Assembly: GCA_035525885.1 (NCBI GenBank)
Contig: DATLDL010000039.1
Span: 1-36,489 of the forward strand
DNA: 36,489 bases
Direction: 5' to 3'
DNA from: Minisyncoccota bacterium
GTDB taxonomy: Bacteria > Patescibacteriota > Minisyncoccia > Phycocordibacterales > Phycocordibacteraceae
The notes under the pieces are model-generated. The model was given only the letters and a program-made list of their open reading frames with translations, was not told the origin of the DNA and made no database searches. Numbering within the stretch: the first letter of the stretch is position 1; each line of letters opens with the position of its first letter. Both the position numbers and the translations under genes were made by a program. This document shows positions 8,238 through 24,146 of the stretch, in pieces.

Positions 8238-8254
8238 ACAACATGCTCATTGAA

Positions 8255-8284: not shown

Positions 8285-8303
8285 GCATATGATACAGAAA
8301 AAC

Positions 8304-8331: not shown

Positions 8332-8388
8332 ATGATTAGGCTCGCCCGTGCGACTAAATACCCATTTCCTCAACAGGGAGAATTGCAA

Positions 8389-9045
8389 GTGAAAAAGCTG
8401 ATCTGGATTGCTGCCTTTTCGATGGCCGCCTTTCTCGATTTTGCAATCGGAACGTTCATTGCTGCCGTTGTCGGCAAAGTAATGAATGTACCGGTGACCT
8501 GGTGGCACCTCGCTATTGCAGGTGTCGTGGCGCTTTCTCCCGACATGCTTCAGATCGTGAATTCAAAACTCACGAAGCAAGAAGCATTTGGCGGTTTGCA
8601 TCACGAGACCTGGGATCATTGGCCCATACCCCTCATGTTCGTGGGTGGACTCGTTGGCTCGGTGTGTGGCGGAGGGTATTGGGCCATCACGGTCTTCCTG
8701 TGCCTCTTCTTCCACTTCACGCATGACATGGAAATCGGAAACACGGGCGGCATTGCGTTCTTTGCGCCGTTCGAGCGCGATCGGTACTTTGCGTGGTGGC
8801 GCGGGTTTTACGACCCCGCTACTTCTGCAATGTTCCGGCCGGAGAACCAGCTCGACCCATGGATCCGTGAAAACTGGCTCTGTCCCAGCCGCATGTCGCT
8901 GATCGAGCTTTCCCTTGGGATGCTGGCACTCTCGATCGCAGCCCATTTGGTTTTGGGAACGGTCGTCGCAGAAGCGCTGCTTGCCGCAGTTGCTGCAGGG
9001 ACTATCGGAGTCTGGTTTCTGGCTGCGCGACTCAACATGACCTAA
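8389..9045 (+). CDS. integral membrane protein, possibly a YdjM/DUF457-type membrane-bound metal-dependent hydrolase
   Basis: The ORF is in frame with track ORF 8332-9045. I chose GTG 8389 because SD GGGAGA (8376-8381) lies 7 nt upstream and the promoter -10 abuts ATG 8332. It has several TM helices and His/Asp-rich motifs (HHETWDHWPIP, HFTHDMEIGNTGGIAFFAPF). The family assignment is tentative. Confidence 0.5.
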   Translation: MKKLIWIAAFSMAAFLDFAIGTFIAAVVGKVMNVPVTWWHLAIAGVVALSPDMLQIVNSKLTKQEAFGGLHHETWDHWPIPLMFVGGLVGSVCGGGYWAITVFLCLFFHFTHDMEIGNTGGIAFFAPFERDRYFAWWRGFYDPATSAMFRPENQLDPWIRENWLCPSRMSLIELSLGMLALSIAAHLVLGTVVAEALLAAVAAGTIGVWFLAARLNMT

Positions 9046-9073
9046 TCCGAAGCCTTGCAGGTAAAGGCAATAC

Positions 9074-9102
9074 AAAGCCCCGATTTCGATTGGGGCTTTT
9101 TC
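9074..9102 (+). terminator. rho-independent terminator
   Basis: AAAGCCCC (9074-9081) pairs with GGGGCTTT (9092-9099) around a 10-nt loop. A T-run follows. Confidence 0.6.
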
Positions 9103-9119
9103 TATCCCCATGACACCCG

Positions 9120-9125
9120 TATACT
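9120..9125 (+). promoter_or_regulatory. candidate -10 box TATACT, 7 nt upstream of ATG 9133 (leaderless-type arrangement)
   Basis: TATACT at 9120-9125, a 7-nt gap (ttgagaa), then ATG 9133. It sits directly after a terminator. Confidence 0.4.
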
Positions 9126-9132
9126 TTGAGAA

Positions 9133-10572
9133 ATGGCACTCACCACTATTCAGAAGGTGTTGTTACTAGGTCTTACAGGAGCTGCTGTTTTCTTCGCTAC
9201 CTATCACCTTACTGAAAGCCCGCCGTTTACGTTTGACGAAGGGTGGTACTTCCAGACAGCCGCAAATCTGGTCACGGCCAATGTGGAAGGCATTCAGCTT
9301 GCTCCGGGCGATATCGAGCACGTCTCTACCTTTGTCACGGTCGGGTATCCGCTCATCTATCCTCTCGCGCTCTGGTTCAAACTCTTCGGTATAAGTGTAC
9401 TCAGCGCTCGAAGTCTCATGGTGCTTTTCATTCTCCTGTTCCTCATAACAAGTTACGTGCTCGCCCGCAAACTGTGTGGTGTTGCTACGGCACTTGCAGC
9501 GCTCGCACTCCTCGCGACCTTTCCTCCGCTGTATGGGAATGGGAAACCTGTGCTTGGGGAAGTGCCAGGACTACTCTATCTCGTGCTATCGCTCTTGTGT
9601 TTGTATCAGGCGAGAACACACACGCTCCACAAAACGTTTTGGATTATCCTTACGGGCATCAGTGTCGGGCTTTGTATTGTTACGAAACCGCTTTTCCTCA
9701 TCATGGCGCCAGCGCTTCTGGCAGGTGTGTATGGCGAATGGAAAAAGAATATCTTTACGCTTCGCGATATCGGCATTGGTTTTTTGAGCACGCTTGCCCC
9801 TATCGCCGCGTGGGTCGTGGTGCAGTTTCGATCAAGCGACTCTTTTTCTACCGTGCTCTCGTACTATGCAAATCCATACAATACGCAACTCTCGACTACC
9901 ATTTTGCATAACCTCGGCGGCCTCTTTTCGGACGTAAATACCTTGTATACGGTTGGGATCGCGTTCGTTTGGGCTGCAGCGCTCTGGGTGAGACGTACGG
10001 CGCAGGAGGATATTCCATCCGAAGAACGTATCGCTTTTGTTTTTGCAATGCTGGTCATACTCGCGTATTTACGTACAGGGGGTTTTTATCGCTACTTGTT
10101 TCCGGCGCAAGCGGTCATGCTTATCTTCTTTCCGCACGCGCTTATGCGCATAAGCATGTTCGCGCATTCATTTTTTCCGCGCCTTCAGTCGCGCCTCGTG
10201 GCCATGAGTTTCATAACCCTGCTCGGCATGCTCGGTTCTTATCAAGTCCTGTTCCATTCGTGGGTTGCTGAAGCATATACGAGCCAAAAGACAGCGTTTT
10301 GGGAGTCCTACTTGAGCGAAGTATCGACTACGACCAGTATCTTTTTCTATAACGCGCCTGAAGTTGCGGCGTTCGCACCACACAGAAATTACTATCAATA
10401 CATTGAAAACTTCGGCAGATCGATCGGTGCGGATCAGCGCACGGCTATTACAGCCGGAACCGTCGATAGGATCATCATTCAAACGGGCTGGTACATTCCT
10501 ACTGATCCGCTTTTCAAAAAATATACGACTGACCGCACGGCTTATAAATACTCGGTCTTACGGCTTCGGTAG
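9133..10572 (+). CDS. polytopic membrane glycosyltransferase, GT-C fold candidate (ArnT/PMT-like)
   Basis: 479 aa with about 11-12 hydrophobic segments. A DE pair follows TM1 (ESPPFTFDEGWYFQTA). A soluble C-terminal tail is present. Confidence 0.65.
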   Translation: MALTTIQKVLLLGLTGAAVFFATYHLTESPPFTFDEGWYFQTAANLVTANVEGIQLAPGDIEHVSTFVTVGYPLIYPLALWFKLFGISVLSARSLMVLFILLFLITSYVLARKLCGVATALAALALLATFPPLYGNGKPVLGEVPGLLYLVLSLLCLYQARTHTLHKTFWIILTGISVGLCIVTKPLFLIMAPALLAGVYGEWKKNIFTLRDIGIGFLSTLAPIAAWVVVQFRSSDSFSTVLSYYANPYNTQLSTTILHNLGGLFSDVNTLYTVGIAFVWAAALWVRRTAQEDIPSEERIAFVFAMLVILAYLRTGGFYRYLFPAQAVMLIFFPHALMRISMFAHSFFPRLQSRLVAMSFITLLGMLGSYQVLFHSWVAEAYTSQKTAFWESYLSEVSTTTSIFFYNAPEVAAFAPHRNYYQYIENFGRSIGADQRTAITAGTVDRIIIQTGWYIPTDPLFKKYTTDRTAYKYSVLRLR

Positions 10573-11358
10573 TTTTTTCGCAATGACGATGATGCCATTC
10601 GGTTCGCCAACTGTAAGTAGGGCGTCAAGAAGATAGAGGGCATAGAAGGGGTAAAAGAGAAGGCCCATGAGTGCTTTTGAGTGAAAACGGTTGTAGGCGT
10701 CGAACAAAAACGTACCGAAGCGATACTCATAGAAGGATACTTTTTCGATCTCAAATCCGCGCTCGGTCAGAAAAGCACGAAGCGCGCCTTCGGTGTATCC
10801 GGGGCGCTCGTGGTCGAATGATCTGAAAATGCGCAAATTGTGGGTGGACCAGTGCGGAACGGAAAGGAGTAGTGTTCCGCCGGGCTTGATGACGCGCGCC
10901 AGTTCGTTCAATGCAGGCACGTCTTCGGGCATATGTTCGATGACTTCAGAACAGACGATAAGGTCGTAGACCTGATCCTGAAACGGGAGCGTTGCAAGCG
11001 AACCGGCCACCGGATGCACGCGCGCAGCAAGGTCGGGTGCCTCGGTAAGCATTTTTTTGATTTCTTCGATGCGAACCGTTTCCAGATCAATCGAATCGAC
11101 CGTCCATCCACGCTCGGCAAGGGAGAATGAATAGATGCCGTAGCCGCAGCCCGCATCAAGCGCGCGGCCGGCAGCGGGAAGGCGTGATGCCGCGCGCAGC
11201 ATTACCCGTGCGCGTGCGCGAAATCCAAGATGTGGCACGCCAATCAGGCGGAGTGCCAACCGTGTCAGAAAATTGTTTTCAAGGGTATACTGTTTCTCAT
11301 CCGCCGTGGAAAGCGACAATCGAGAAAATCTCCCTAGTACTGAGCCGATGATTGCCAT
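10558..11358 (-). CDS. class I SAM-dependent methyltransferase
   Basis: Motif I is ALDAGCGYGIYSFSLAERG, followed by DSIDL, LIVCSEVIEHM and IKPGGTLLLSVP. I placed the start at ATG 11358 (MAIIGSV) because SD AGAGG (complement of 11366-11370) lies 7 nt upstream. The track start 11466 would be antisense to the conserved N-terminus of the neighbouring GT2. Confidence 0.8.
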   Translation of the reverse strand: MAIIGSVLGRFSRLSLSTADEKQYTLENNFLTRLALRLIGVPHLGFRARARVMLRAASRLPAAGRALDAGCGYGIYSFSLAERGWTVDSIDLETVRIEEIKKMLTEAPDLAARVHPVAGSLATLPFQDQVYDLIVCSEVIEHMPEDVPALNELARVIKPGGTLLLSVPHWSTHNLRIFRSFDHERPGYTEGALRAFLTERGFEIEKVSFYEYRFGTFLFDAYNRFHSKALMGLLFYPFYALYLLDALLTVGEPNGIIVIAKKLPKP

Positions 11359-12076
11359 GTCCACGCCTCTGTCTGTTACGATAGTGATCCCAGTATACAA
11401 CGAAGCGCTGATTATTGCGGATTCACTTACGAAACTTCTCACCTTCCTTTCGAAGGAATTGCTCACCTATGGGTACCGCATTCTTGTCGTCGACAATGCG
11501 AGTACCGATCAGACGGCTGACCTAGTCTCCGCTATCGCCCGCCACCATCCAGAAGTTTCCCTGCTTCGACTCACAGAAAAAGGGAAGGGGCGCGCCGTGC
11601 GCGCCGGGTGGGATACGGGCGGCGATATTTTAGTGTTTATGGATGCCGACCTTTCTTCGGACTTGTCGTTCTTCCCGGCGCTCATTACGCCGATCGCGTC
11701 CGGCACTGCCGATCTTGCAATTGGCAATCGGCTTGGACGCACCTCCGTGCTCATAAGCGAGAAGCGGGGCCGCAAGATTGCATCACAGTTTTATAACGCG
11801 CTTGCGCGACTACTTCTGCGTACCGGAATCGACGACCACCAATGCGGCTTCAAGGCGATTTCAAAAAACGCCTATGCGCGCATTCGTCCGCATGGTATCG
11901 ACCCCGGTTTCTTTTTTGATACCGAACTGATTGCGTGGACTAAGAAGCTTGGATTCGCCATTGCCCAAATTGATATTCGCTGGGTCGATAGTCCCGTATC
12001 GAAAGTATCGCTGTTTTCTGATTCGATCAGAATGTTCGGATCAATGCTCGAACTCGCTGCTCGCCTACACCTATGA
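11348..12076 (+). CDS. GT2 glycosyltransferase, Dpm1/GtrB-like (polyprenyl-phosphate sugar synthase type)
   Basis: Motifs are VTIVIPVYNEALII, VVDNASTDQTADL, VFMDADLSSD and QCGFKAIS. The start is ATG 11348 or 11357. The track start 11273 adds a non-conserved extension. Confidence 0.85.
   Translation: MIAMSTPLSVTIVIPVYNEALIIADSLTKLLTFLSKELLTYGYRILVVDNASTDQTADLVSAIARHHPEVSLLRLTEKGKGRAVRAGWDTGGDILVFMDADLSSDLSFFPALITPIASGTADLAIGNRLGRTSVLISEKRGRKIASQFYNALARLLLRTGIDDHQCGFKAISKNAYARIRPHGIDPGFFFDTELIAWTKKLGFAIAQIDIRWVDSPVSKVSLFSDSIRMFGSMLELAARLHL
11392..11397 (-). promoter_or_regulatory. candidate -10 box TATACT for the minus-strand methyltransferase, embedded in the GT2 coding sequence
   Basis: The reverse complement of AGTATA at 11392-11397 is TATACT. 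It lies 33 nt upstream of ATG 11358, with SD AGAGG in between. Confidence 0.3.
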
Positions 12077-13830
12077 ACCGCACGCTCTCGATTGTCATTC
12101 CTTGTTACAACGAAGAAGCCACGCTCGCGACGCTTCTCGATCGTGTCCTGGCAACGTCTCTTCCGGGCTGGAACAAGGAAGTCATTGTTGTTGATGACGC
12201 CTCTACAGACGGCACACCCGCGATTCTGGCAGCGTATGCTTCACGCATAACCGTCCGGCGATTGGCACGAAATGGAGGAAAGGGAACCGCCGTTGCTGAA
12301 GGACTGGGGGTTGCTGCGGGCGATTTCATCCTCATTCAAGACGCTGATCTTGAATATGCGCCTGAAGAAATTTCACGCCTTACTAACGCGGTGCAAGATG
12401 AGCGCTCGGTGGTCTACGGCTCTCGTAATCTTGAGAATCCGCAGCGTACTGGTTTTTGGATACCGCGCCTTGGCGTATGGGGCATCACGGTATTGATCAA
12501 TGTGCTTTATGGCGCACGTCTTACTGATGCGTGGACGTGCTACAAGCTATTTCCCGCGTCTGCAAAACGGTTTTTTCCCGCCGGCCGTTTCGATGCCGAG
12601 ATTATGTTTACGCTCGAGCTTGTGCGGAAAGGGTATGCAATAGATGAGGTGCCGATCACGCATTCGCCGCGGGATGCTGCGCACGGGAAAAAGATTCAGT
12701 ATACCGACGGACTGAGGGTCATCGGGCTTATCTTGAAAGATTCCATTCAGCATATCCGTCCGTTTTGGCTATTTCTGCTTACACTTATCATGCTCGCGAC
12801 GCTTTCGTTTGCCGTACTGAAGCCGGCGTTTTCGCTTGAAGGCGATGCGCCGTCCTATATCGCTTCCGTACAGTTTCTGCAGGCGGGTGCAGTCGATGCG
12901 CATTTTGTACCGAACAGGATTCTCACTACCTTCCTCGGTCTTGAGGCGATCAGTCTGCTTTCCCAAGTGACTGGAGGGAATCTGCAGACTGCATGGCTGC
13001 TCCTGAACGCGATCTTCTACGTGCTTGGCGGTCTCGTTTTTTACCTCATGCTCCTGACCGTGTTCAGAAGCCAGTCGGTGGCGTTTCTCGGCGGCCTGTT
13101 CCTTGCTGCAAACTACGCGTATCTTACCTTCGGTCTGAGTTATTTCATGGACATGGGCGGATGGTTCTTCTATCTTCTCGCTCTCTTTTTCACGGCATAC
13201 TATCTCTATTCTCGTCGAACGCGCCACTTGTATTGGAGTGCAGTCGCAATCGGCGTGGGGGTTTTGTTCAAAGAGTACGCGCTTCTGGGAGTCATACCGC
13301 TCATACTCACCGTGGTCTGGGAGAAATGGCCACGGGCTGGCGCAGCTAGTAAACAGCTCATCCCGCTTGGGACGCTGGTGTGTATCCCTCTCATACTTTT
13401 ATACCTCTACGTCTATCTTCGGTTCGGATACACCTACGCCGATTGGTTTACCTTCAACCATAGCTACTACGTCTACTCCTCGCGGCTCATTGAATATGTA
13501 AAAGCGGGCGGCGTACTCGTGAATTTCCTTGCTCTACCAGTGCTCCTTGGCGCCTATCAATTGTTCGTCCAAAAGGGAAAAGCGCTCGCTCGGCCGCACC
13601 GTATGTTCGTGGGGGCGGTTATAGTCTCTGCGCTCCCGGCATTCATATGGCCCGCCATCACCGAGCGCATACTCTTTATTACGATACCCGCGCTCATCTT
13701 GATCGCGAGCATCGCATTCAAAAGATACGAACAGCGCTGGTTCGTATTTCTTCCGATACTCGGGCTCTATGGGCTCATGAGTTTGTATATGGACTCCGTT
13801 ATTCTGCCGCAGATAAATCTGCCATTTTAA
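12073..13830 (+). CDS. fusion protein: N-terminal Dpm1-like GT2 domain plus a C-terminal ~350-aa polytopic membrane domain
   Basis: 585 aa with an ATGA overlap onto the upstream GT2. N-domain motifs are LSIVIPCYNEEATL, VVDDASTDGT and LIQDADLEYAPEE. From about residue 235 onward there are roughly 9-11 hydrophobic helices. Confidence 0.85.
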   Translation: MNRTLSIVIPCYNEEATLATLLDRVLATSLPGWNKEVIVVDDASTDGTPAILAAYASRITVRRLARNGGKGTAVAEGLGVAAGDFILIQDADLEYAPEEISRLTNAVQDERSVVYGSRNLENPQRTGFWIPRLGVWGITVLINVLYGARLTDAWTCYKLFPASAKRFFPAGRFDAEIMFTLELVRKGYAIDEVPITHSPRDAAHGKKIQYTDGLRVIGLILKDSIQHIRPFWLFLLTLIMLATLSFAVLKPAFSLEGDAPSYIASVQFLQAGAVDAHFVPNRILTTFLGLEAISLLSQVTGGNLQTAWLLLNAIFYVLGGLVFYLMLLTVFRSQSVAFLGGLFLAANYAYLTFGLSYFMDMGGWFFYLLALFFTAYYLYSRRTRHLYWSAVAIGVGVLFKEYALLGVIPLILTVVWEKWPRAGAASKQLIPLGTLVCIPLILLYLYVYLRFGYTYADWFTFNHSYYVYSSRLIEYVKAGGVLVNFLALPVLLGAYQLFVQKGKALARPHRMFVGAVIVSALPAFIWPAITERILFITIPALILIASIAFKRYEQRWFVFLPILGLYGLMSLYMDSVILPQINLPF

Positions 13831-13834
13831 CTAT

Positions 13835-14875
13835 ATGAAAATCTGCTGGTTCGGTATCTATAACCCAGACTTCTCACGAAATCAGATCTACATCCGCGGT
13901 CTGCGCGTAAATGACGTTACGGTTCTCGAATGTGCTGATCGCAGTCCTGGGCTTCGCAAATACCTCCGGCTGTGGCAGAAACACCGCGCACTGCAGGGGA
14001 ATTACGATGCGCTCGTTGTCGGCTATCCTGGTCATCTCGTCGTACCGTTTGCCAAACTACTTTCCAGAAAACCAGTAGTCGCTGACCTGCTCGGCTCGCT
14101 TGCTGATGCCGAGCAGCACTCGCATATGCCAAGCCGCATACGATTGCTCAAAAGCCGCATTGCCGACTGGTGTGCCGTGCATTTTGCCGATCTGGTACTG
14201 CTTGAAAGCGAGGCGCAAAAACGCTATTTCGAAGAGCGATTTGGCCCGTCTGGCAAATATCGTGTCCTCTATACGGGCGCCGACGATAGCGTCTTTTACT
14301 GTGACTCTTCATCTTCAGGCACACCACGCACTGTTTTGTTTCGCGGCCGCCTGACTCCCGAATGCGGCATTTTGCATATCCTTGAGGCGGCACGTCTATT
14401 GAAAAATGAGCACAATATTCGTTTCCGCGTGCTTGGCTCAGGGCCGCTACTTGCTGTGGCACAGGCATACATTCAGACACACGCTCTTGAGAACGTGGTG
14501 TTGGTTACTGAGTATCTTTCTGGGGAAGCACTGCGAACACATATCTGTGACGCATCGCTCGCGCTTGGGCAATTCGAACACAATCCACGCCTCTCACGCA
14601 CCATTCCTCACAAAGCATTTGAAGCGTTCGCGATGGGTATTCCGTACCTGACGGGAAATGGGGAAGCCGTGTGCGAAATTGTGCAGGAGCGCGAAACCGG
14701 CTTCCTGGTCCCGCTCGGGGATCCCGCGCAGCTCGCAGAAAAAATACGCTCTCTTATGCACGAGGATCACATACGTTTGAGCGTTGCGGCAAAAAGCAGA
14801 CAGCTTTTTGCCGAACAATTCGCACCTGCCGTACTTGCGCGAAAATTAGTCTCGCTGCTTGCGGAACTTACTTAA
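13835..14875 (+). CDS. glycosyltransferase, GT-B fold (GT4/GT1-like)
   Basis: 346 aa, starting 4 nt after the upstream stop. The C-terminal donor-binding region is PHKAFEAFAMGIPYLTGNGEAVCEIVQERETGFLV. Confidence 0.8.
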   Translation: MKICWFGIYNPDFSRNQIYIRGLRVNDVTVLECADRSPGLRKYLRLWQKHRALQGNYDALVVGYPGHLVVPFAKLLSRKPVVADLLGSLADAEQHSHMPSRIRLLKSRIADWCAVHFADLVLLESEAQKRYFEERFGPSGKYRVLYTGADDSVFYCDSSSSGTPRTVLFRGRLTPECGILHILEAARLLKNEHNIRFRVLGSGPLLAVAQAYIQTHALENVVLVTEYLSGEALRTHICDASLALGQFEHNPRLSRTIPHKAFEAFAMGIPYLTGNGEAVCEIVQERETGFLVPLGDPAQLAEKIRSLMHEDHIRLSVAAKSRQLFAEQFAPAVLARKLVSLLAELT

Positions 14876-15480
14876 CAGCAAAGCAGAGGAAACCGCTCGT
14901 TTGTTCGCTCGCGTCTTTGCCAAACAGGCGATCAATCCACTCAAAGAAACGAGTCCTTTTGGTGAAGACTGGAATAAGGTTCATGGCGGTCGCAAGCGCA
15001 CCGCGTTCACCCACCATTTCTATGGAAGAAAAGTCACGCATGAGATAGGCAAGCCCGTCGCGTGTAAATCGGTAGAAGTCTTGGTAATACCCCTTTTCCG
15101 GATGATAGTAAAAAATAAAAGGTATTTTCACGAGGCAGTATCCGCCCTTTTTCAGAACGCGATGCATCTCCCGAGCAGCTTGTTGCGGTTCTTCGACGTG
15201 CTCAAGCACATCAAGACAAAGGATCGCTTCCACAGAGTCACTCGGCAGGGGTAAACGTATGAATGTCTCCGACGATGTCGGGATGATAATCCGGCACTTT
15301 GTCGAGAATCTTGTAGTCCTTGCCTGCGGCAAGCGGCACGGCCCATGGATGCATCACGCCTCGATTGTTCCGCTTCGGATCAATTTTCAATCCGCCACCG
15401 ATATCAATGATCTCGTGTTTCTCAGTAAAGATTTTGCATATCTTTTCCCTGAAAAATAATTCATCTCGCCTCATGCTCAT
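14868..15480 (-). pseudogene. class I SAM-dependent methyltransferase interrupted by a single-nucleotide frameshift (pseudogene or assembly error)
   Basis: Two overlapping minus-strand ORFs (15238-15480 and 14868-15332) each carry half of one methyltransferase. They encode IIDIGGG...PDIVGDIH and LPLPSDSVEAILCLDVLEHV...LKKGGYCLVKIP. Removing one base from the AAA/TTT run at 15253-15255 joins them as GDIHTLPLPSDSVEAI. Confidence 0.75.
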
Positions 15481-16181
15481 GCACGTATAAATAACGCGTC
15501 CTCAAACAATATGGCTCCCGTGACCGGATCGCGCTTTTGATGGAGTGCGCCCCGATACGAAAATCCGGCATCTTTCATGAGCGTGTACACGCGATCAAAC
15601 AGCGGCTGGCCTTCATACAAGCGTACGAATGATGCTTCAAGCAGTGCCACTTTCGTTTGCGCGAGCGTTGCAGGTCCTCCTGCAAGCACCTGCTCCTCAT
15701 ACCCCTGTGCATCTATTTTTAAGAGCACGTTCGGTGCCAGCGGTAGACCGGCAAGCGCATCGTCCATACATTCAATGCGAATCGTCTCATCGACGCCGCC
15801 TTTGGTGTGCGGGAATAGATCGGTATGGAGCTTTTCCATAGGAAGCAGGGAAGAGCTCGGACTGTAGCTGCTGCGGTGGATGGTAGCCGTGCCGGATGTT
15901 TCGCCAAGCGCAGTATTAAACGCATGAAAGTTCGCATCGCCCTTCATGCGCGCCGTGAGTTCGGCAAAACAATCCGGAAGCGGTTCAAAAGAGTACATGG
16001 TCGCGTCAGGCAGAAGTGCCCGTACTTCCTGCGCAAATTGACCAACATTCGCACCCACGTCGATGATGGTTTTAATGTCGAGTGTTGTGAGAATGGCGAG
16101 TGGCTCAGGGCTGGCATGGTGCCGATGCACGTCAATGCCGATTTGATTCAGTGCACGGCGCACAGGGTGTCGAGAGCTCAT
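15477..16181 (-). CDS. FkbM-family methyltransferase
   Basis: 234 aa. IIDVGANVGQFAQEV and FEPLPDCFAEL match the FkbM-domain pattern. It has 4-nt overlaps with both neighbouring genes. Confidence 0.85.
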   Translation of the reverse strand: MSSRHPVRRALNQIGIDVHRHHASPEPLAILTTLDIKTIIDVGANVGQFAQEVRALLPDATMYSFEPLPDCFAELTARMKGDANFHAFNTALGETSGTATIHRSSYSPSSSLLPMEKLHTDLFPHTKGGVDETIRIECMDDALAGLPLAPNVLLKIDAQGYEEQVLAGGPATLAQTKVALLEASFVRLYEGQPLFDRVYTLMKDAGFSYRGALHQKRDPVTGAILFEDALFIRA

Positions 16182-17275
16182 GCCGCAAAACGATTAAGGG
16201 CTGCAATGACGTACATAACTTCCTCGTCAGTCAGCTCAGGAAAAAGTGGAAGAGACAGCACTTCCTGTGCGGCGTGCTCACTTTCCGGCAGATCGCCCGC
16301 CTTGTATCCCAAGAATTCATACGCTTTTTGGAGGTGAATAGGGAAAGCGTAGTGCGTGCCAAATCCGACGCCGGCCTCAGTGAGATGTTTTTGAAGCGCG
16401 TCGCGATGCTTGGTCCGTATCACGAATAAGTGAAAGACATGCGTCGAATCCGGCCGAAGTTTCGGCAACGTAATCAGCGGATTTTGTATTTCGGTGAGGT
16501 ATCGAGTGGCAATCTCTCTACGGCGTCCGTTCCAGGTATCAAGGTGGGGAAGCTTCACGCTAAGGACTGCGGCCTGCACTTCATCCATACGGCTGTTGTA
16601 GCCCTCGATGTCGGCGAAATACGTTTTAGCCATCCCATACATGCGCAGTTTTCGGCAGGTGGCGGCAAGCGCTTCGCTACTGGTGAGAATCATGCCGCCA
16701 TCGCCATACGCGCCCAAGTTTTTAGTCGGATAAAAACTGAAACAGCTTATGGCGCCGAACGTGCCGGCGGTCTTGCCCTTGTACGTCGCTCCCGTTGTTT
16801 GAGCGCAATCTTCCACGACGGGAATCTCATGTCTGGTAGCGACCGTCATGACCGCTTCGATATCGACTGGTTGACCATAGAGATGGACTGCGACGATCGC
16901 TTTCGTGTTCGATGTGATTTTCCCTTCAAGCTTGTTCGGATCCATGCCGAAATAGTCATCACTGTCCACAAAGACAGGAATCGCTCCACGCTCGCGTATG
17001 GCGCTTACGGTCGGGACTGCGGTGTTAGTAACTGTAATGACTTCATGTCCCGGTCCAACACCCAGTGCGGCAAGTGCGATTTTAAGTGCATCGGTGCCAG
17101 AGTTAACCGCAATGCCATGCGCAGTGCCAATGTATTTTGCAAAAGACTCTTCAAAATGCAGCGTCTCGTTTCCAAGTACAAATTTTCCAGACTCGAACAC
17201 GCGTGCCGCTGCGGCCATCATTTCTTCATGCAGCGTGGCGTATTGGCGCGTGGCGTTAAAGACGGGCACATTCAT
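16178..17275 (-). CDS. DegT/DnrJ/EryC1/StrS-family PLP-dependent sugar aminotransferase (FdtB/QdtB/TylB-like)
   Basis: 365 aa. DALKIALAALGVGPGHEVI is present. The PLP-lysine context is FSFYPTKNLGAYGDGG. Confidence 0.9.
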   Translation of the reverse strand: MNVPVFNATRQYATLHEEMMAAAARVFESGKFVLGNETLHFEESFAKYIGTAHGIAVNSGTDALKIALAALGVGPGHEVITVTNTAVPTVSAIRERGAIPVFVDSDDYFGMDPNKLEGKITSNTKAIVAVHLYGQPVDIEAVMTVATRHEIPVVEDCAQTTGATYKGKTAGTFGAISCFSFYPTKNLGAYGDGGMILTSSEALAATCRKLRMYGMAKTYFADIEGYNSRMDEVQAAVLSVKLPHLDTWNGRRREIATRYLTEIQNPLITLPKLRPDSTHVFHLFVIRTKHRDALQKHLTEAGVGFGTHYAFPIHLQKAYEFLGYKAGDLPESEHAAQEVLSLPLFPELTDEEVMYVIAALNRFAA

Positions 17276-17694
17276 ACTTTTTTCTCTGCGACGATGCGTT
17301 TGAAGTCCTCATAGGAGCGAATGTAATCCTTTTCGTCGTAGGTGCGATCCGCGATCACCATGAGCGTCGTATCAGGAAGGAACGTGTGCATGACATGCCA
17401 CACATATGGGTACAGTAACAATCCCTGATTGGGCGTGGTCAATACCACATCTTCCTTGTGTTCGCCGTCGTCAAGTTCAACGGTGCATCCGCCGGAGATG
17501 GCGACGAGGATCTGGTTCGTCTCGTAGTGTGTATGGGCGCCGCGGCGGTCGTTCCCGTTCATGCCTTTGGTGATGAGGACGCGTTTGGGAGTGAAAGGGA
17601 GCGCATCCGGTACTTCCTGGAACATGTAGAGCACACCGTTTTTAGTATCCGAAGACGGGAACGTAATGAGTTCGTACGGAGGTTTATGATCCAT
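17272..17694 (-). CDS. WxcM/FdtA-like cupin, dTDP-4-keto-6-deoxyhexose 3,4-ketoisomerase candidate
   Basis: 140 aa, the size of FdtA/QdtA. The RGxHxH motif is present in RRGAHTHYETNQILVAISG. The gene sits between the dehydratase and the aminotransferase. Confidence 0.8.
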   Translation of the reverse strand: MDHKPPYELITFPSSDTKNGVLYMFQEVPDALPFTPKRVLITKGMNGNDRRGAHTHYETNQILVAISGGCTVELDDGEHKEDVVLTTPNQGLLLYPYVWHVMHTFLPDTTLMVIADRTYDEKDYIRSYEDFKRIVAEKKV

Positions 17695-18679
17695 AAAAGA
17701 TTTTTTCTAGTCCGAGTTTTCGGGCAATCGAGCGCTTTTTCCCGACGCCCATCTTGCGCGTCCGCTCTTCGTTTTGTGCTTTGCAGATGGGGAGGTATTG
17801 CTCAAGCGTCATGGTTGGCTTCCACCCCAGCGCTTGTATCTTCGTCGTATCGACGGAGTAGCGGATGTCTTGCCCGGGACGATCGCCTACGTACTCGAAG
17901 AAGTCGGACGGACGGCCCATAATTTCAAGAATGCGCTGCACGACGTCTAGATTCGTTCGTTCCTCACAACTTGAAATATTGTAAATTTCTCCATCAAGTC
18001 CATTTTCCATAACCAGGAGAATTGCCTCGCAGTTGTCATTCACGAACGTCCACTCGCGTTTGTAGAGGCCGGTCCCATATACCGCTGCCTTCTGGCCCTT
18101 CTGCGCACGCTTCATGGTGTTCGGAATGAGTTTCTCTGCGCGCTGACCGAAACCATAGTTATTGCTTGGACGACAGAGGCGTGCGCGGAGGTTATAGGTA
18201 CGTGCCCATGCAAACACGAGCTGATCTGCAGCGGCCTTCGTAGCAGAGTACGGATTCGACGGCTTCAGACGATCGCTTTCTGTAAACGAACCTTCAGCAA
18301 TGTCGCCATACACTTCATCCGTTGAGATTTGTATAAAGACGGGGCGCTGTGCCGGTTCTATTTTTCGCACAAGCTCAAGCAAAGTATAGACTCCTTCAAC
18401 ATTTGAACGGAAAAAAGGGCTACTGTTTTTTATGGAATTATCGACGTGCGACTCGGCAGCAAAGTTCACCACATGCGTAATGTGCCGGGGAAGCGCTTTC
18501 AAATCACAAATATCGCTCACGACTAATTCGTAGTTTGGGTGTTTCTCGAACTCAAGATCTTCTCGGATGGCGTACGTTTTCTTGTCGACGTTAATCACGT
18601 AGTACCCCTTATCAAGAAGGAGTTGTACAAAATGACTGCCGATAAACCCGAGACCTCCCGTAACGAGAATGCGCTGCAT
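17684..18679 (-). CDS. rfbB: dTDP-glucose 4,6-dehydratase
   Basis: The Rossmann motif is ILVTGGLGFIGSHF. ISTDEVYG and the YxxxK motif YSATKAAADQLV are present. I placed the start at ATG 18679 (MQRILVTGG). The track start 18688 lies inside a perfect TATAAT box. Confidence 0.9.
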   Translation of the reverse strand: MQRILVTGGLGFIGSHFVQLLLDKGYYVINVDKKTYAIREDLEFEKHPNYELVVSDICDLKALPRHITHVVNFAAESHVDNSIKNSSPFFRSNVEGVYTLLELVRKIEPAQRPVFIQISTDEVYGDIAEGSFTESDRLKPSNPYSATKAAADQLVFAWARTYNLRARLCRPSNNYGFGQRAEKLIPNTMKRAQKGQKAAVYGTGLYKREWTFVNDNCEAILLVMENGLDGEIYNISSCEERTNLDVVQRILEIMGRPSDFFEYVGDRPGQDIRYSVDTTKIQALGWKPTMTLEQYLPICKAQNEERTRKMGVGKKRSIARKLGLEKIFYGS

Positions 18680-18686
18680 CGCCGGC

Positions 18687-18692
18687 ATTATA
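18687..18692 (-). promoter_or_regulatory. candidate -10 box TATAAT, 7 nt upstream of rfbB ATG 18679 (leaderless-type)
   Basis: The minus strand reads TATAAT-GCCGGCG-ATGCAGCGC. No convincing -35 box is present. Confidence 0.45.
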
Positions 18693-18718
18693 CTATAAAA
18701 AACCGAACTTTTTAGAAT

Positions 18719-19708
18719 TTAGTTTCGTTTCAAAATGGCCTTAACAAGGGATTTTAGATAGTAGAAAGAAGTGAATACTAATTCGCTATACCAGCTTGGT
18801 CGGGGAAGGGTCCCACTCGTAAAGTCTGGTCGGATTTTGCGGATGTCGGTCATTGCCTGATACATCGCATGCGCATAGGGGCGGTATAATAGCTTCTTCT
18901 CGATTGAGGGCACGATGTAGAGACTGGGCGGTCCCCATGGTAGCCACGACGAAGGCGGCCAATACAGCTTAAAGCGAGAAAAGTGGAAGAAGATCAATGG
19001 GTCACCATCTATAAACACCGAGTCTCCTTTTTTTGTAATTCTGCCCGCATAGGCCTCGATATTCCACGACGCCAAGTTCACTCCTTTCCACGGAAGCACC
19101 CACACCCCTTTGAATTTTTCTTCAAAGTAATCCAAATATTTCTGATCGCCAAAACGAGTCGGTTCGACTTGGTCATAGCACCATTCGAGGCAGCGCTCTT
19201 TCCACCAGTTCAAACATGCACGCGCATTCGCATCGTTGTTGAAAATGAGCATACCGACATTGTATTTACCGACCTCTGCTTCACGCTTTGCGGCGTCCCC
19301 ATGGAGGCGGTGGGGAATGATCATGACGGAGTGTCCGGCACATGCTTCGTATATCGGCTCAATGGAAGCGTAATAGAACAAGTCACCGTCAACGTAGGTG
19401 ACCGTCTCGGCATCTGGATTTCTTTGAAGCACGTACCACGTGCTCCAGGCACTTAACGTCCAACAGTATTCAACAAAGGTACGGGTCTTTTTAACTGCCT
19501 TGAGCTCGTCGTCTTCAAATTCTGCCATTGAAACCGCTTTCAGGTGCGGAAGATTCATTGTGGTCAGAATTTCATGCGTCTCGTCATCCATGCAGAGCAC
19601 CCAAAAGGTAAATGGTGTGCTGCAATTTGCCGCAATAGATCGATACAGGCAGAGTCCTCTATTCAGGAATCCTTTATCAAACAAGGTGACGAAATGTCGT
19701 TTAGGCAT
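18719..19708 (-). CDS. nucleotide-diphospho-sugar transferase, GT-A fold candidate (GT8-like)
   Basis: 329 aa. The N-terminus HFVTLFDKGFLNRGLCLYRSI and a DxD-like VTYVDGDLFYY suggest a GT-A enzyme. It is Trp-rich and visibly more AT-rich than its neighbours. The family call is tentative. Confidence 0.5.
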   Translation of the reverse strand: MPKRHFVTLFDKGFLNRGLCLYRSIAANCSTPFTFWVLCMDDETHEILTTMNLPHLKAVSMAEFEDDELKAVKKTRTFVEYCWTLSAWSTWYVLQRNPDAETVTYVDGDLFYYASIEPIYEACAGHSVMIIPHRLHGDAAKREAEVGKYNVGMLIFNNDANARACLNWWKERCLEWCYDQVEPTRFGDQKYLDYFEEKFKGVWVLPWKGVNLASWNIEAYAGRITKKGDSVFIDGDPLIFFHFSRFKLYWPPSSWLPWGPPSLYIVPSIEKKLLYRPYAHAMYQAMTDIRKIRPDFTSGTLPRPSWYSELVFTSFYYLKSLVKAILKRN

Positions 19709-21020
19709 GGGCTGGAGGTGTCGATTCTACTGAGGAATATGACCGTGCAAGAAGATGGTACAGGAGAATGAAGAAGATCGTTGTTGAAGCAAGCCCGATC
19801 GCCATACGAGCCCACGAGTCATACGGTACGTGCGTAAATCGTGGCAACAGGTAGAGAAAGAAGAGGTTGAGTGCATTTAAAACACCAAGAGCATAGCCCG
19901 CATAGAGCACGAGTCGGTCGCGAAGCCATGCACCAAGCACTATGGTCGCCATGAATCCAAAGTAGAAATGGTTCTCGTGCGCGCTTGTGGTGAGATAGGG
20001 AACCGCGATAGGAACAAAAAGTAGAGTCAGTGCCACGAGTTCTTCAAGGGAATGTGTGTTTTCTGCGATTTTTGTAATAAACAGTCCAATAACAACAAGT
20101 AAGATGAAAAGACTAAGCGAGCGATACGAAACGCCAAACAGCGTGCTGGTATCTGTGACCCGATAAATAGGTTGACCAGGACTTCGCACATAATTTGCGA
20201 CAAAAAACCACGCATTCGGCATGTTCGCGTTTAGTGCGGGCATAACGTCAGGAACATGCGCATAATGGGCAATTAAGAATGAGCTGTTGGCGATGAATTC
20301 GCTCATGCGTGCTGATACCCCATGCTGCTCAAGGGCAGTAGCTATGTTCGTCAGCGTATGATGATTCTCGATCTTCAGACTTAGTCCGAAATAGATCGAA
20401 AACAGAACGACAAGGGTGAGTGGTGCCAGAGCGAGAGCCGCAAGACGTCCTGCGCCCGCTTGTCGCTTAAAGAGAAGAACGACAAACAGGAGACCCAATC
20501 CTATGAAAAGAGGAATCGCTTGCGGCTTCATCAGCAGTGCTACCCCAAGCGGAATGCCTGCCGTAAGCCAAGAACGCACACCCGATGCTTTGGTGATAAG
20601 CCAGAGTGCAAGCAGTATGAAAAATGAGAACTGCGGATCAACGTAGCCCTGTTGAGACAGGAAAAAGTGGAAGGGGTTTAACCAGTAGAGTCCTACCACA
20701 ATCCACGGCGCAAGACGTTTACGTGTGAGTGCGACAAGGAGCGTCAGTGTTCCGATTTCGAACAAGAGCGTAACGATCTTAATGCCGTATTCGAACGTGA
20801 CGAGTCCCTGCGCATGCAGAGAGGACACACCCGCAAAGATAAGGTACTGGATAGGGAAGTACACGCCATCAAATGACTCGGCAAGTCCGCTCGTATACGT
20901 GCGGTCCCCCCAACGCTCGTAGCTTACAAGGTCCGATGATCCTGGAGTCGGCAGGAGACAGAGACGTACGATAAGGCCTATAAAAAAGAGGATAAACGCA
21001 AGACGCTTGGCGGTGAGCAT
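19701..21020 (-). CDS. polytopic membrane protein, GT-C-like candidate (DUF2029/GT87-type)
   Basis: 439 aa with about 11-12 hydrophobic helices. The first loop contains an acidic residue (PGSSDLVSYERWGD). It overlaps the downstream GT-A gene by 8 nt. Confidence 0.5.
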   Translation of the reverse strand: MLTAKRLAFILFFIGLIVRLCLLPTPGSSDLVSYERWGDRTYTSGLAESFDGVYFPIQYLIFAGVSSLHAQGLVTFEYGIKIVTLLFEIGTLTLLVALTRKRLAPWIVVGLYWLNPFHFFLSQQGYVDPQFSFFILLALWLITKASGVRSWLTAGIPLGVALLMKPQAIPLFIGLGLLFVVLLFKRQAGAGRLAALALAPLTLVVLFSIYFGLSLKIENHHTLTNIATALEQHGVSARMSEFIANSSFLIAHYAHVPDVMPALNANMPNAWFFVANYVRSPGQPIYRVTDTSTLFGVSYRSLSLFILLVVIGLFITKIAENTHSLEELVALTLLFVPIAVPYLTTSAHENHFYFGFMATIVLGAWLRDRLVLYAGYALGVLNALNLFFLYLLPRFTHVPYDSWARMAIGLASTTIFFILLYHLLARSYSSVESTPPAHA

Positions 21021-21026
21021 ATGCGC

Positions 21027-21035
21027 AGTATCACA
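21027..21035 (-). promoter_or_regulatory. candidate extended -10 (TGtGATACT), 6 nt upstream of ATG 21020 (leaderless-type)
   Basis: The minus strand reads TGTGATACT-GCGCAT-ATG. Confidence 0.4.
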
Positions 21036-21105
21036 TATTTTCCGGGTCTACCGAACCGCAAAAAGAGCACAATATGGGATATACTTGCGGCAACCAAACG
21101 GCCCT

Positions 21106-21828
21106 ATGTATCGCACTAAAAAGGTAAGTGTCGTCATTCCCACCTATAACGAGGCAGGAAGCATTCGCGCGGTGATTGACGGCTTCTTTGCGACCGGTTT
21201 TGTGGATGAAATAATCGTGGTCGATAATAACGCCAAAGACCCTACCAAGGCAGAAGTAGCAAAAACCAATGCGCGTCTTGTCGAAGAGAAAGAGCGTCAA
21301 GGGTACGGCCATGCCATCATGCGCGGCCTGACAGAGGCCACGGGCGACCTCATCGTTATGGTCGAAGCAGATGGAACGTTTGATCCAAACGACATTCATA
21401 AGTTTCTGCTGTACAGCGATCATTTTCCCGTGGTCTTTGGCACGCGCACCTCTCGTGCTGCCATCTGGTCGGGCGCCTTCATGCCGTTTCCCGTGCGCTT
21501 CGGGAACTGGGCGGTAGCGAAGGTGCTCGAGGTTTTGCATAACGGCCCGACGCTGACGGATGTCGGGTGCACATATAAATTGATTGATCGCGCATCGCTC
21601 GAACGCATCAAGAATTATTTCCCGCGCTCGCCAGGCGATGGGAAATTCTCTCCCGAACTCATGATCTGGTTGATTCGTACGCAAGCCGATAAGAATGTGC
21701 TTGAGATTCCGATCATGTACAAGCCGCGCGTGGGCACCTCGACCTATACCGGCAGCATTTGGAAGGCGGCCAAGCTTGGGTGTACCATGCTGCCACTCAT
21801 CTTCGCGTATCGCTTCAGGAAACTATGA
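21106..21828 (+). CDS. GT2 glycosyltransferase, Dpm1/GtrB-like
   Basis: Motifs are VSVVIPTYNEAGSI, IVVDNNAKDPT and VMVEADGTFD. I placed the start at ATG 21106. The track start 21007 overlaps the divergent gene. A TATACT box lies at 21080-21085. Confidence 0.85.
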   Translation: MYRTKKVSVVIPTYNEAGSIRAVIDGFFATGFVDEIIVVDNNAKDPTKAEVAKTNARLVEEKERQGYGHAIMRGLTEATGDLIVMVEADGTFDPNDIHKFLLYSDHFPVVFGTRTSRAAIWSGAFMPFPVRFGNWAVAKVLEVLHNGPTLTDVGCTYKLIDRASLERIKNYFPRSPGDGKFSPELMIWLIRTQADKNVLEIPIMYKPRVGTSTYTGSIWKAAKLGCTMLPLIFAYRFRKL

Positions 21829-22469
21829 AAGACGCGTACTACGCTTCCCGCTACACTCCCGATCCCGCACGTACTGTGGTGTGGAAAGAAATTGTCCGAT
21901 TCCTCGCACCTTATATTTCCCCCGAAGCGACCGTGGTTGATTTGGGGGCCGGGTACTGCGATTTCGTTAATACGGTACGCGCGAAGGTGAAATATGCGGT
22001 CGATACCTCCCCTGAACTGAGTGAGCACGCAGGCGCAGGAGTTATGCTGATTTCGCAGCCCGCCTGGGAACTCAACTCCATCCCAGATCATTCGGTCGAT
22101 GTAGTACACGCGAGCAATCTCTTCGAACATTTTACCGACGACGAGCTCGAGCGGGTTATGGCCGAAGTACGCCGCGTACTAAAACCGGGCGGACGCCTGA
22201 TTTTGATGCAGCCCAACTACCGACTCACCTACAAGAATTATTTTGATGATCCGACTCACAAGAAGATATTTACCGATGCGTCCTTGCAAGCGTTTCTCGA
22301 AAGTCATGGGTTTGCCATACGACTCGCGAAACCAAAATTCCTTCCGTTCTCGATGAAATCACGAGGAGCGCTTCCCGTGTCTCCGCTTATCGTACGTGCC
22401 TATATACACTCACCTATAAAGCCGTTTGCAGGACAGATGCTCGTGATTGGGGAACTTACACGTGCTTAA
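21825..22469 (+). CDS. class I SAM-dependent methyltransferase
   Basis: ATGA overlap with the GT2 stop. Motif I is VVDLGAGYCDF, followed by VVHASNLFEHF and LKPGGRLILMQPN. Confidence 0.85.
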   Translation: MKDAYYASRYTPDPARTVVWKEIVRFLAPYISPEATVVDLGAGYCDFVNTVRAKVKYAVDTSPELSEHAGAGVMLISQPAWELNSIPDHSVDVVHASNLFEHFTDDELERVMAEVRRVLKPGGRLILMQPNYRLTYKNYFDDPTHKKIFTDASLQAFLESHGFAIRLAKPKFLPFSMKSRGALPVSPLIVRAYIHSPIKPFAGQMLVIGELTRA

Positions 22470-23262
22470 ACAAGTATCCTTTTTCAAGCGCAATCGTGTC
22501 ACTGAGCCGAATGGTCGAGCGGAGTGATTCAAAGTCGGTAATGAGTGTGTATTTTTTGTTCAAGATACTCAAGACCTTTTGTTCGTTTAAGAACCAAGCC
22601 GGATAACTCGCGTCGTAAATGCCCGGCCGTACTTTTTGGACGGTTAACCGATCGGTATTCGGGAGCACGGCAGTACGATCAAAGAGAACGAACGGGAAAT
22701 CTCTGGCGGCAACTTCCTCAAGAAGCGCATACGGATTTTCAATATATTGTATCGAGCTTGAAGCGAAAAATACATCGATCGGATGCGTCTGTACGCACGC
22801 ATCAATGGTGCTGAAAAAGGAAAGGTGGTCGTCTGTAAACGTAGCATTGCCAGCGTCTACGAATGTTTCTTGTTCGACGACGTTCCACGCGAGTTCAGTC
22901 AGCGGCTTCAGGAATGCACGATTCTGAAAATACGAGCTGCCAAGCGATCCTCCGAAATCAAGTACCCGGAGCCGTGACGTACGCTGCGCGGCGATCCAGA
23001 GCAGGGACGCAAGGACGGGCCATGAGTACTGAATCGTATCGAATACAACGGAGTCGCGCTCATACGCCGCCTCACCCCGCTTCACCGTAAGGAGCGCTTG
23101 CTTCACCTTCTCGAGAATATGCGGGCTGTCATAGCCGGAAGAATCTGCCAAGGCGCTCTTCCAGTCCGGATACGTTCCGAAAAAACCATAAGCAGCCGGT
23201 TTTTTGAAAAGGGAGAGCAGGGCAGGAGGCACCCATGCTTTAAGTGTGGTTTTTAGCGACAT
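22456..23262 (-). CDS. putative methyltransferase, TIGR04325 (LIC12133)-like family
   Basis: 268 aa. The N-terminal pattern is GTYPDWKSALADSSGYDSPHILEKV...GEAAYERDSVVF, followed by RVLDFGGSLGSSY. This matches my recollection of that family and has not been checked by a search. Confidence 0.65.
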   Translation of the reverse strand: MSLKTTLKAWVPPALLSLFKKPAAYGFFGTYPDWKSALADSSGYDSPHILEKVKQALLTVKRGEAAYERDSVVFDTIQYSWPVLASLLWIAAQRTSRLRVLDFGGSLGSSYFQNRAFLKPLTELAWNVVEQETFVDAGNATFTDDHLSFFSTIDACVQTHPIDVFFASSSIQYIENPYALLEEVAARDFPFVLFDRTAVLPNTDRLTVQKVRPGIYDASYPAWFLNEQKVLSILNKKYTLITDFESLRSTIRLSDTIALEKGYLFKHV

Positions 23263-24146
23263 AGTTTGTTCCAGATCCGCTTGAGGAGCGAAGGTCGAAG
23301 CGATCGAAAGTACACAGTGAAAATTCCACGTGCCTCACTGCTTTCAGCAAGGGGAATGCGCTTCACCAGGACACGCTCAGTATATACCGCGCTATCGAAT
23401 CGATTTGACCGGGATGCGTGCGTGCCGCTCGCGTCGTTACCAATATTGTGCACAAGTGACGCGTGCGGATAGAGCGTTAATGCGCCAGCAAGATAGGCAG
23501 ACGCATTCCACCTGATTGCCCACGAATCGTTTTTGCCTTCGATCTGTCGCTTGAGCATGTCTGAAAAATGATCCGTGTCGTCAAAGTCAAAAGAGCGTAT
23601 GAGCTTTTGCATTTCAAGCTGCCGCAGCAGCTTCGTACCGTCGGGCTCGAACAAATCCCACGCCCGTTTCCAGGTCGCCCATCCCCAGCAGTCCGCGCCA
23701 CGTAGAAAAAACGTCTCAGGGAGCGGCGTTCCAATCGGATAGACGTATCCATGAATGCTGGCGACAATCGCATCATCTGCATAGGTAGTGAGGCCGTCAT
23801 TCATATAGTCGAGAAAGTGAGGGCCAGTAACCAGATCGTCTTCAAGTACGATCACGCGACCGAATTGGTTCACGAGTTCCGTTACTCCGGCAATAATCGA
23901 TTGCGCCAGACCCCAATTCTCGAATCGCTCGGTTACATGTACCGCCTTGAAACCCTCGATGGTTTGAAGCAGGCGACGCACTTCAGCAACTGCGGCGCGA
24001 TTCGTTTCGCTTTTTGGTCCGTCTGAGAAAACGAAGAGCTCGGTTTCGGATGCGTGCTTGTTTGCTTTGAGCGCCTCAAGCGTCTTCCGAGTGTGCTCGG
24101 GGCGGTTGTATACGAAAAGCGCGATCGGTGCAGGTTGCATAGTCAA
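23253..24146 (-). CDS. GT-A fold glycosyltransferase candidate (GNT-I/GT2-like)
   Basis: 297 aa. ALFVYNRPEHTRKTLEAL, ELFVFSDGPK and the acidic VLEDDLV resemble GT-A enzymes of polysaccharide loci. Confidence 0.55.
   Translation of the reverse strand: MTMQPAPIALFVYNRPEHTRKTLEALKANKHASETELFVFSDGPKSETNRAAVAEVRRLLQTIEGFKAVHVTERFENWGLAQSIIAGVTELVNQFGRVIVLEDDLVTGPHFLDYMNDGLTTYADDAIVASIHGYVYPIGTPLPETFFLRGADCWGWATWKRAWDLFEPDGTKLLRQLEMQKLIRSFDFDDTDHFSDMLKRQIEGKNDSWAIRWNASAYLAGALTLYPHASLVHNIGNDASGTHASRSNRFDSAVYTERVLVKRIPLAESSEARGIFTVYFRSLRPSLLKRIWNKLCR

Follow-up and report, generated by a model that had tools for sequence, protein, structure and literature searches.

The contig DATLDL010000039.1, assigned to a Minisyncoccota bacterium (assembly GCA_035525885.1), carries a surface-glycan locus in which a run of minus-strand genes is predicted to make deoxythymidine diphosphate (dTDP)-linked 3-amino-3,6-dideoxyhexose. 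The contig was analysed over its whole length of 36,489 bp, which we call the window. Judging from gene content and from the comparison of related loci, we think it probable that this pathway lies inside a heavily O-methylated glycan locus and that the methyltransferases encoded there belong to a frame of glycosyltransferase genes, and not to the amine. An earlier note on this DNA had instead proposed a mycaminose-like logic, in which the two methyltransferases following the aminotransferase would modify the amino sugar in place of an N-acyltransferase. Since the window is the whole contig, the area beyond it could not be inspected directly and related loci (designated by L numbers) were used as a stand-in; the searches for an acyltransferase and for RmlA cover the contig and these loci.

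Most likely the run forms an operon with translational coupling, within a surface-glycan locus of a bacterium resembling the Patescibacteria (Candidate Phyla Radiation, CPR). The list of open reading frames (ORFs) places all five genes where the earlier note had them, on the minus strand: an RmlB-type dTDP-glucose 4,6-dehydratase (17684-18688, or from an ATG start at 18679), an FdtA/QdtA-type dTDP-4-keto-6-deoxyglucose 3,4-ketoisomerase that is a stand-alone cupin of 140 aa (17272-17694), a predicted FdtB/QdtB/DesV-type C3 aminotransferase of the DegT family, dependent on pyridoxal phosphate (PLP; 16178-17275), an FkbM-family S-adenosylmethionine (SAM) methyltransferase (15477-16181), and a class I SAM methyltransferase from a Patescibacteria-wide family of ~201-aa proteins (14868-15480). 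The ORF coordinates also bear out the overlaps described earlier, which from RmlB to the class I methyltransferase are 11, 4, 4 and 4 nt, so that the cupin overlaps rmlB by 11 nt and the aminotransferase has 4-nt overlaps on both sides. The named relatives of the FkbM protein, the class I methyltransferase and FdtA come nearly all from Patescibacteria (Paceibacteria, Zambryskibacteria, Komeilibacteria, Taylorbacteria, Kaiserbacteria and Parcubacteria).

The first three pathway steps proposed earlier are borne out by the identities and catalytic motifs of RmlB, FdtA and DegT, and the route to dTDP-3-amino-3,6-dideoxyhexose appears sound: RmlB would produce dTDP-4-keto-6-deoxyglucose, the FdtA-type cupin would shift the keto group to C3, and the FdtB/QdtB-type transaminase would then give dTDP-3-amino-3,6-dideoxyhexose of either the galacto or the gluco configuration. 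RmlB scored 348.8 bits against TIGR01181, just short of the cutoff of 365.1; its ten best matches in the PDB are all dTDP-glucose 4,6-dehydratases (top match 2hun, 5e-87), and its translation carries the catalytic motifs TDE ('STDEVYG') and YxxxK ('YSATK'). The cupin matched PF05523 (1.8e-35), with FdtA (2pa7, 1.1e-26) as its top PDB match and QdtA (4zu7) at 2.9e-17. The catalytic His pair, which the earlier note had singled out as essential to its idea, is kept in the alignment to FdtA, where 'RGAHTH' of the cupin falls on 'RGFHAH' (His49/His51), the columns that carry the H49N and H51N substitutions of entries 2pae and 2pak, and 'VWH' falls on the position of His95. DegT matched PF01041 (1.2e-117) and, in order, 7b0d, DesV (2oga), QdtB (3frk), 7n63 and WlaRG (5u1z) in the PDB, where the C3 aminotransferases (7b0d, DesV, QdtB, WlaRG) rank above the C4 enzymes; the Schiff-base lysine motif 'FYPTKNLG' was aligned. 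We infer regiospecificity at C3 from this ranking together with the adjoining isomerase gene.

Of the two methyltransferases, we take first the FkbM gene. Its product matched PF05050 (3.5e-17; 63.5 bits, cutoff 22.7) and TIGR01444 (89.8 bits, cutoff 37.7), and weakly the RfbT family (PF05575, E 0.0011), and its AlphaFold model, with a pLDDT (predicted local distance difference test) of 91, has a Rossmann-type class I fold. A PDB sequence search gave no match at E ≤ 1 and a family profile insignificant matches only, an exact-sequence look-up found no other contig with this sequence, and the sole relative in a reference-genome scan was a protein of Actinomycetota, 37% identical. For its context we used gene tables of the contigs with FkbM relatives, 80 metagenome loci, and a tblastn map made with the window proteins. 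A fixed frame recurs across these loci, in which a GT8-like gene is followed by RmlB (61-70% identity), a slot and FkbM, the last facing a GT1 glycosyltransferase gene. The slot holds FdtA and DegT in the window, L005/6, L009 and L097, while on L016, a short contig, DegT alone is visible ahead of FkbM; it is empty in L002-4 and L018, which have an extra 298-aa short-chain dehydrogenase/reductase (SDR) directly 5' of RmlB, and in L007 and L013, where a B12-binding radical-SAM gene, accompanied by an unknown 288-aa ORF, lies just 5' of RmlB. Between RmlB and FkbM there is a slot for variable sugar-tailoring genes, with FdtA+FdtB as one of several interchangeable cassettes.

FkbM is found without FdtA/FdtB in L002, L007, L013 and L018; conversely, L098 has RmlB-FdtA-DegT facing GT1 and no FkbM, and in L099, which has no FkbM either, an SDR and a carbamoyltransferase come after FdtA-DegT. 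In a neighbour-joining tree of the FkbM orthologues, moreover, three sister pairs each join an FdtA-containing and an FdtA-lacking locus (window/L002, 62% identity; L005/L013, 60%; L016/L018, 82%). FkbM and the amino cassette thus dissociate in both directions, which argues that FkbM needs no amine and belongs to the frame RmlB-[slot]-FkbM/GT1. Every FkbM-family member of known function that we are aware of (FkbM, RfbT of Vibrio cholerae, NoeI) is an O-methyltransferase, and because of this the most economical proposal is O-methylation of a position common to all cassette products, or of the GT1 product. The window protein is probably an O-methyltransferase and would, with any of the cassettes, methylate a hydroxyl on either the 6-deoxyhexose or what the GT1 opposite it produces.

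In the earlier proposal, FkbM and/or the class I methyltransferase would N-methylate the dTDP-3-amino sugar, so that the surface glycan would contain a 3-(di)methylamino-3,6-dideoxyhexose like mycaminose or ravidosamine. The 4-nt overlap of DegT and FkbM, the recurrence of the order DegT-FkbM in L005, L009, L016 and L097, and the lack of an acyltransferase competing for the amine are all in keeping with it. We nevertheless regard it as very unlikely. Neither of the two methyltransferases matched TylM1 or DesVI by PDB sequence, profile or fold (phmmer and profile searches to E = 10; top 50 structural matches of each model), and they show no likeness to these N,N-dimethyltransferases beyond the generic class I fold. 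No match to TylM1 or DesVI came from three other window methyltransferases by PDB sequence or profile either (MT214 to E = 0.01; the TIGR04325-family protein to E = 10; MT11a among the best 60 of 91 matches at E ≤ 1e-4). Both AlphaFold models resemble generic class I methyltransferases only, with template modelling (TM) scores of ~0.4-0.55, and this fold does not separate O- from N-methyltransferases. Furthermore, neither gene co-varies with FdtA/FdtB: the closest FkbM orthologue (62%) and the 82% pair L016/L018 span amino and non-amino loci, the FdtA-containing L098 lacks FkbM, and the class I gene is frameshifted here, missing in L005, L097 and L098, and known mainly from FdtA-less loci. The O-methyltransferases known in the FkbM family point the same way. 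The suggestion that the sugar is N- and/or O-methylated and not N-acylated divides: O-methylation somewhere in the glycan is plausible, while for N-methylation by these two enzymes we found no positive evidence.

The frameshift that had been noticed in the class I methyltransferase is real in the sequence as deposited. The gene (PF08241) lies in two frames, 15238-15480 and 14868-15332, and its reading frame of ~200 aa is broken by one extra base near 15258-15262 (a +1 shift). This base lies in CATACGTTTACCCC, not in a long homopolymer. Once rejoined, the protein is 203 aa long, aligns over its full length with intact ~201-aa homologues and has lost none of the invariant residues; at the junction, GDIH-x-LPLPSDS, the invariant Leu and Pro are recovered. 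It is 56-77% identical to more than 100 homologues listed, nearly all intact, of 886 matches, and its AlphaFold model has a pLDDT of 85. The gene is either a very recent pseudogene or the victim of a sequence or assembly error. Were it an error, an intact gene would leave two working methyltransferases after the aminotransferase, and the single lesion with all family-invariant residues and the full length preserved is what one would expect; but the extra base is outside a long homopolymer, the gene is dispensable in syntenic loci, and gene calling on the source contig likewise gave no more than a 121-aa fragment (P0206), so that we consider an error quite possible while leaning against it.

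Intact or not, the class I gene does not follow the amino cassette. Its relatives lie directly beside a GT1/GT4 gene in five independent contexts (L008, L009, L010, L093 and L095/96), only one of which, L009, has FdtA/DegT. It is an optional part of the frame, and its family always stands beside a GT1/GT4 gene. Both in the window (14868-15480) and in L009 (3280-3906) it sits between GT1 and FkbM, but the strand differs: it runs in the direction of FkbM in the window and of GT1 in L009. L002 has a 209-aa methyltransferase which, at 30% identity, we did not accept as an orthologue of the frameshifted gene.

Co-occurrence with FdtA/FdtB from locus to locus is seen for one methyltransferase only, and it is neither of these two. 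On the minus strand, a GT2 gene (23253-24146) is followed with a 10-nt overlap by a TIGR04325-family methyltransferase gene (22456-23262; 223.8 bits, cutoff 80), and this pair lies 5' of FdtA-DegT in 5/5 FdtA-containing loci with enough upstream DNA and in 0/39 FdtA-less loci of at least 10 kb, although the loci are related and the count overstates their independence. The enzyme could thus be tied to the amino sugar, N- or O-methylating it after transfer by the partner GT2, and the otherwise different Taylorbacteria locus L099 is among the five; the family also occurs near a 47% identical DegT in Indioceanicola. Such a tie is still unlikely in our view. The methyltransferase overlaps GT2 here and is fused to it in a single 611-aa ORF on the Indioceanicola plasmid (L101 7981-9816), and would hence act with that glycosyltransferase; the family occurs on Caballeronia pNK83 in a cluster that has neither FdtA nor DegT; the loci are not phylogenetically independent; and the family has no characterised member, a literature search on TIGR04325 function having found nothing. 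As an amine-specific methyltransferase, the candidate was weakened by the Indioceanicola fusion and the Caballeronia cluster.

At the same position, FdtA-less CPR loci have a fusion of a GT2-like protein with an FkbM domain, 560-570 aa long (L002 3499-5181; L013 3023-4735; in L007 from the gene table only). The GT2/TIGR04325 overlap and these fusions look like a glycosyltransferase-methyltransferase link of the Rosetta-stone kind. Because methyltransferases pair with glycosyltransferases throughout these loci, the arrangement points to methylation at or after glycosyl transfer, and not to tailoring of the amine on the nucleotide sugar. Literature searches on FkbM glycan O-methyltransferases and on Patescibacteria glycan loci found nothing usable.

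Every real window ORF was scanned against Pfam, and none carries a Hexapep, GNAT, formyltransferase or NTP_transferase domain; RmlA (glucose-1-phosphate thymidylyltransferase) was sought on the contig through the last of these and not found. A hexapeptide-repeat regular expression and tblastn with a control acyltransferase, a crude test, found no hidden acyltransferase in the window either. The absence of an acyltransferase, a formyltransferase and RmlA, to which the earlier note had drawn attention, was upheld on the contig. The gene tables of L005, L009, L097, L098 and L099, covering 8-10 kb on each side, list no acyl- or formyltransferase. Together with the window, this makes six loci with an FdtA+FdtB cassette and no acyltransferase, and the acyltransferase-less FdtA/FdtB design is a conserved feature. 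Metagenome-assembled genomes with the cassette include GCA_034680565.1, GCA_038211765.1 and GCA_001821015.1. The FdtA relatives found are all (86/86) stand-alone proteins of ~140 aa with no acyltransferase fusion. Of the findings that the earlier note had said would count against it (an acyltransferase co-conserved just outside the window, methyltransferases grouping with lipid or protein methyltransferases, a cupin without its His pair) none was obtained, the five related loci also lacking an acyltransferase.

On this gene content, no product of the locus is likely to acylate the amine, which may stay free, undergo a later modification, or receive an acyl group from an unlinked enzyme. The last option corresponds to an ordinary pathway to Fuc3NAc or Qui3NAc (3-acetamido-3,6-dideoxy derivatives of galactose and glucose), or to an N-formyl sugar, with the acyltransferase and RmlA elsewhere in the genome and the methyltransferases decorating a conventional glycan. 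We hold this to be possible but rather doubtful. RmlA is also missing from the contig and the syntenic loci, so the pathway genes are evidently dispersed, and the 3-amino sugar is N-acylated in characterised systems: a review of Escherichia coli O antigens names FdtA/B/C and QdtA/B/C, the pathway ending with FdtC or QdtC and the sugars being Fuc3NAc and Qui3NAc (PMC7685785). On the other side, the 86 FdtA relatives include no fusion with an acyltransferase domain. Moreover, the six loci have no acyltransferase within 8-20 kb, whereas the characterised clusters, to our knowledge, keep fdtC/qdtC beside fdtA/fdtB.

A bolder version, which we offer tentatively and would not expect to hold, is that the surface glycan of Patescibacteria with this cassette contains an unacylated 3-amino-3,6-dideoxyhexose whose amine is free (cationic) or N-methylated, for instance by the TIGR04325 enzyme. 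The sugar would also be O-methylated, and could be delivered through the co-conserved fusion of GT2 and GT-C domains by an ArnC/ArnT-like polyprenyl-phosphate route. A precedent for a surface-glycan locus that has FdtA and FdtB and no FdtC is the flagellin glycosylation island of Geobacillus sp. PSS1, for which a non-acetylated sugar was proposed, likewise from sequence (PMC5109656).

Several points weigh against our preferred placement of the pathway in an O-methylated locus whose methyltransferases serve the glycosyltransferase frame. The FkbM orthologues are just 46-62% identical to the window protein, and a switch of acceptor atom could in principle have taken place; an enzyme aimed at the heteroatom on C3 could, in principle, take the hydroxyl in one cassette and the amino group in another. 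The tight 4-nt coupling of DegT and FkbM in four loci fits a direct role for FkbM in the pathway, and the compared loci are related, so that their counts are not independent. An FdtC, a GNAT enzyme or a formyltransferase, and RmlA, may sit unlinked elsewhere in the genome. Finally, as RmlB scored just below the TIGR01181 cutoff, the nucleotide carrier (dTDP) is an assumption.

The operon starts upstream of RmlB, with a polytopic membrane protein of 439 aa (19701-21020, minus strand) that has no significant Pfam family and whose gene overlaps the next by 8 nt; orthologues with 43-46% identity occupy the same position in L005, L009 and L097 of the tblastn map. The second gene (18719-19708, minus strand) encodes a GT8-like GT-A glycosyltransferase of 329 aa, with a 'VDGD' DxD-type motif and a weak PF01501 match (E 0.0028), which is a candidate transferase for the 6-deoxy or amino sugar. 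Its homologues lie 5' of RmlB or FdtA in every related locus, at 37-45% identity where FdtA is present and 29-33% where it is not, and one also adjoins DegT in the Indioceanicola plasmid locus L101.

Convergent with the operon on the plus strand is the GT1 (GT4-type) glycosyltransferase (13835-14875; PF00534, 5.7e-22), the 3' end of which overlaps the class I methyltransferase by 8 nt. Orthologues with 40-58% identity converge on FkbM in L002, L005, L007, L013, L014, L022, L023 and L097, and on DegT in L098. Beside it, also on the plus strand, lies a gene for a fusion of GT2 and PMT_2 (GT-C) domains (12073-13830; PF00535, PF13231), which accompanies GT1 in 5/5 syntenic FdtA-containing loci (window, L005, L009, L097 and L098) and was not found in L002, L007 or L013. 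The amino sugar may pass through this fusion by an ArnC/ArnT-like polyprenyl-phosphate route, or the association may reflect mere shared ancestry.

The window contains several GT1/GT4, GT2 and PMT_2 (GT-C) genes, GtrA, a Wzx-like flippase, a Wzy_C-TPR protein and eight methyltransferases, as well as the housekeeping genes MurB, SecA, Obg and GatB. The eight methyltransferase genes, at 5574-24845, each adjoin a glycosyltransferase gene (GT1, GT2 or PMT_2) or are fused to one; one is a methyltransferase-GT2 fusion (5574-6872), and the methyltransferase at 6879-7619 adjoins only that fusion. Three PMT_2 proteins, GtrA, the flippase and the Wzy_C-TPR fusion accompany them, and the set points to a heavily methylated glycan, part of whose assembly takes place outside the cytoplasm. 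In other loci, genes for Wzt-type ATP-binding cassette (ABC) transporters with a Wzt_C domain, which binds carbohydrate, stand beside FkbM or other methyltransferases (L007 1-1123, L097 1-21, L099 1-180), a neighbourhood reminiscent of export under the control of a methylated chain terminator; in the window, the Wzx-like flippase takes their place. In L099 (8001-12548; Candidatus Taylorbacteria, GCA_001821015.1), GT8-like, FdtA, DegT, SDR and a 621-aa carbamoyltransferase (Carbam_trans_N/C) follow in a row, which may represent a carbamoylated variant of the amino sugar. Elsewhere in the window, a CofD/YvcK-family protein (PF01933, 3.2e-75) is encoded at 2457-3437 between glycosyltransferase genes and GtrA. 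The end of the window (35001-36489) has a GC content of 0.41 against ~0.52 elsewhere, an HTH_17 protein at 35002-35799 and no long ORF in its last 690 bp, and may lie at the boundary of a mobile element.

Almost nothing is known of the envelope glycans of Patescibacteria (CPR), which probably mediate attachment to host cells. What emerges here is a recurrent, modular glycan locus with a fixed RmlB, FkbM and facing GT1 and a swappable slot, in which the FdtA/FdtB option always comes without an acyltransferase. If the amino sugar is indeed unacylated, it would bring a new surface-sugar chemistry to cell envelopes, and this in a lineage with a virtually uncharacterised envelope; with its amine free or methylated, it would be an unusual cationic or hydrophobic 6-deoxy sugar on the surface of these bacteria. 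The result is a prediction from gene content, which corrects an over-reading in favour of mycaminose and reveals no new mechanism. The pathway is a known one, and this variant of it occurs in a poorly known lineage.

Compared with known systems, the window shares the isomerase and C3 transaminase steps and the lack of an N-acyltransferase with the mycaminose and desosamine pathways (Tyl1a/TylB/TylM1; DesV/DesVI), and DesV (2oga) was the second-best PDB match of its aminotransferase. Unlike in those pathways, no N,N-dimethyltransferase of the TylM1/DesVI type was detected among the methyltransferases tested, and the methyltransferases do not co-vary with the aminotransferase; unlike in macrolide producers, the genes lie in a glycan-assembly locus (Wzx, Wzy_C, GT-C) and not in a polyketide cluster. 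With V. cholerae RfbT/WbeT and rhizobial NoeI, the window shares the FkbM domain and a polysaccharide locus beside 6-deoxyhexose genes, but its FkbM gene is conserved as a convergent pair with GT1, and the likeness is one of family, the close relatives having no known function.

With the FdtA/FdtB/FdtC system of the Aneurinibacillus thermoaerophilus S-layer (dTDP-D-Fuc3NAc) and the QdtA/QdtB/QdtC system of Thermoanaerobacterium and of E. coli O antigens (dTDP-D-Qui3NAc), it has in common the RmlB-type dehydratase, the stand-alone His-pair cupin and the C3 PLP aminotransferase, encoded by adjacent, overlapping genes in a surface-glycan locus. Unlike in these systems, the window and the five related loci have neither the left-handed beta-helix acetyltransferase FdtC/QdtC nor another acyl- or formyltransferase; the window also lacks RmlA, has FkbM after the aminotransferase, and belongs to a Patescibacteria-like organism. 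The Geobacillus sp. PSS1 island differs in phylum and in locus architecture, and the evidence there is sequence-based too (PMC5109656), but it shares with the window the combination of FdtA and FdtB without FdtC.

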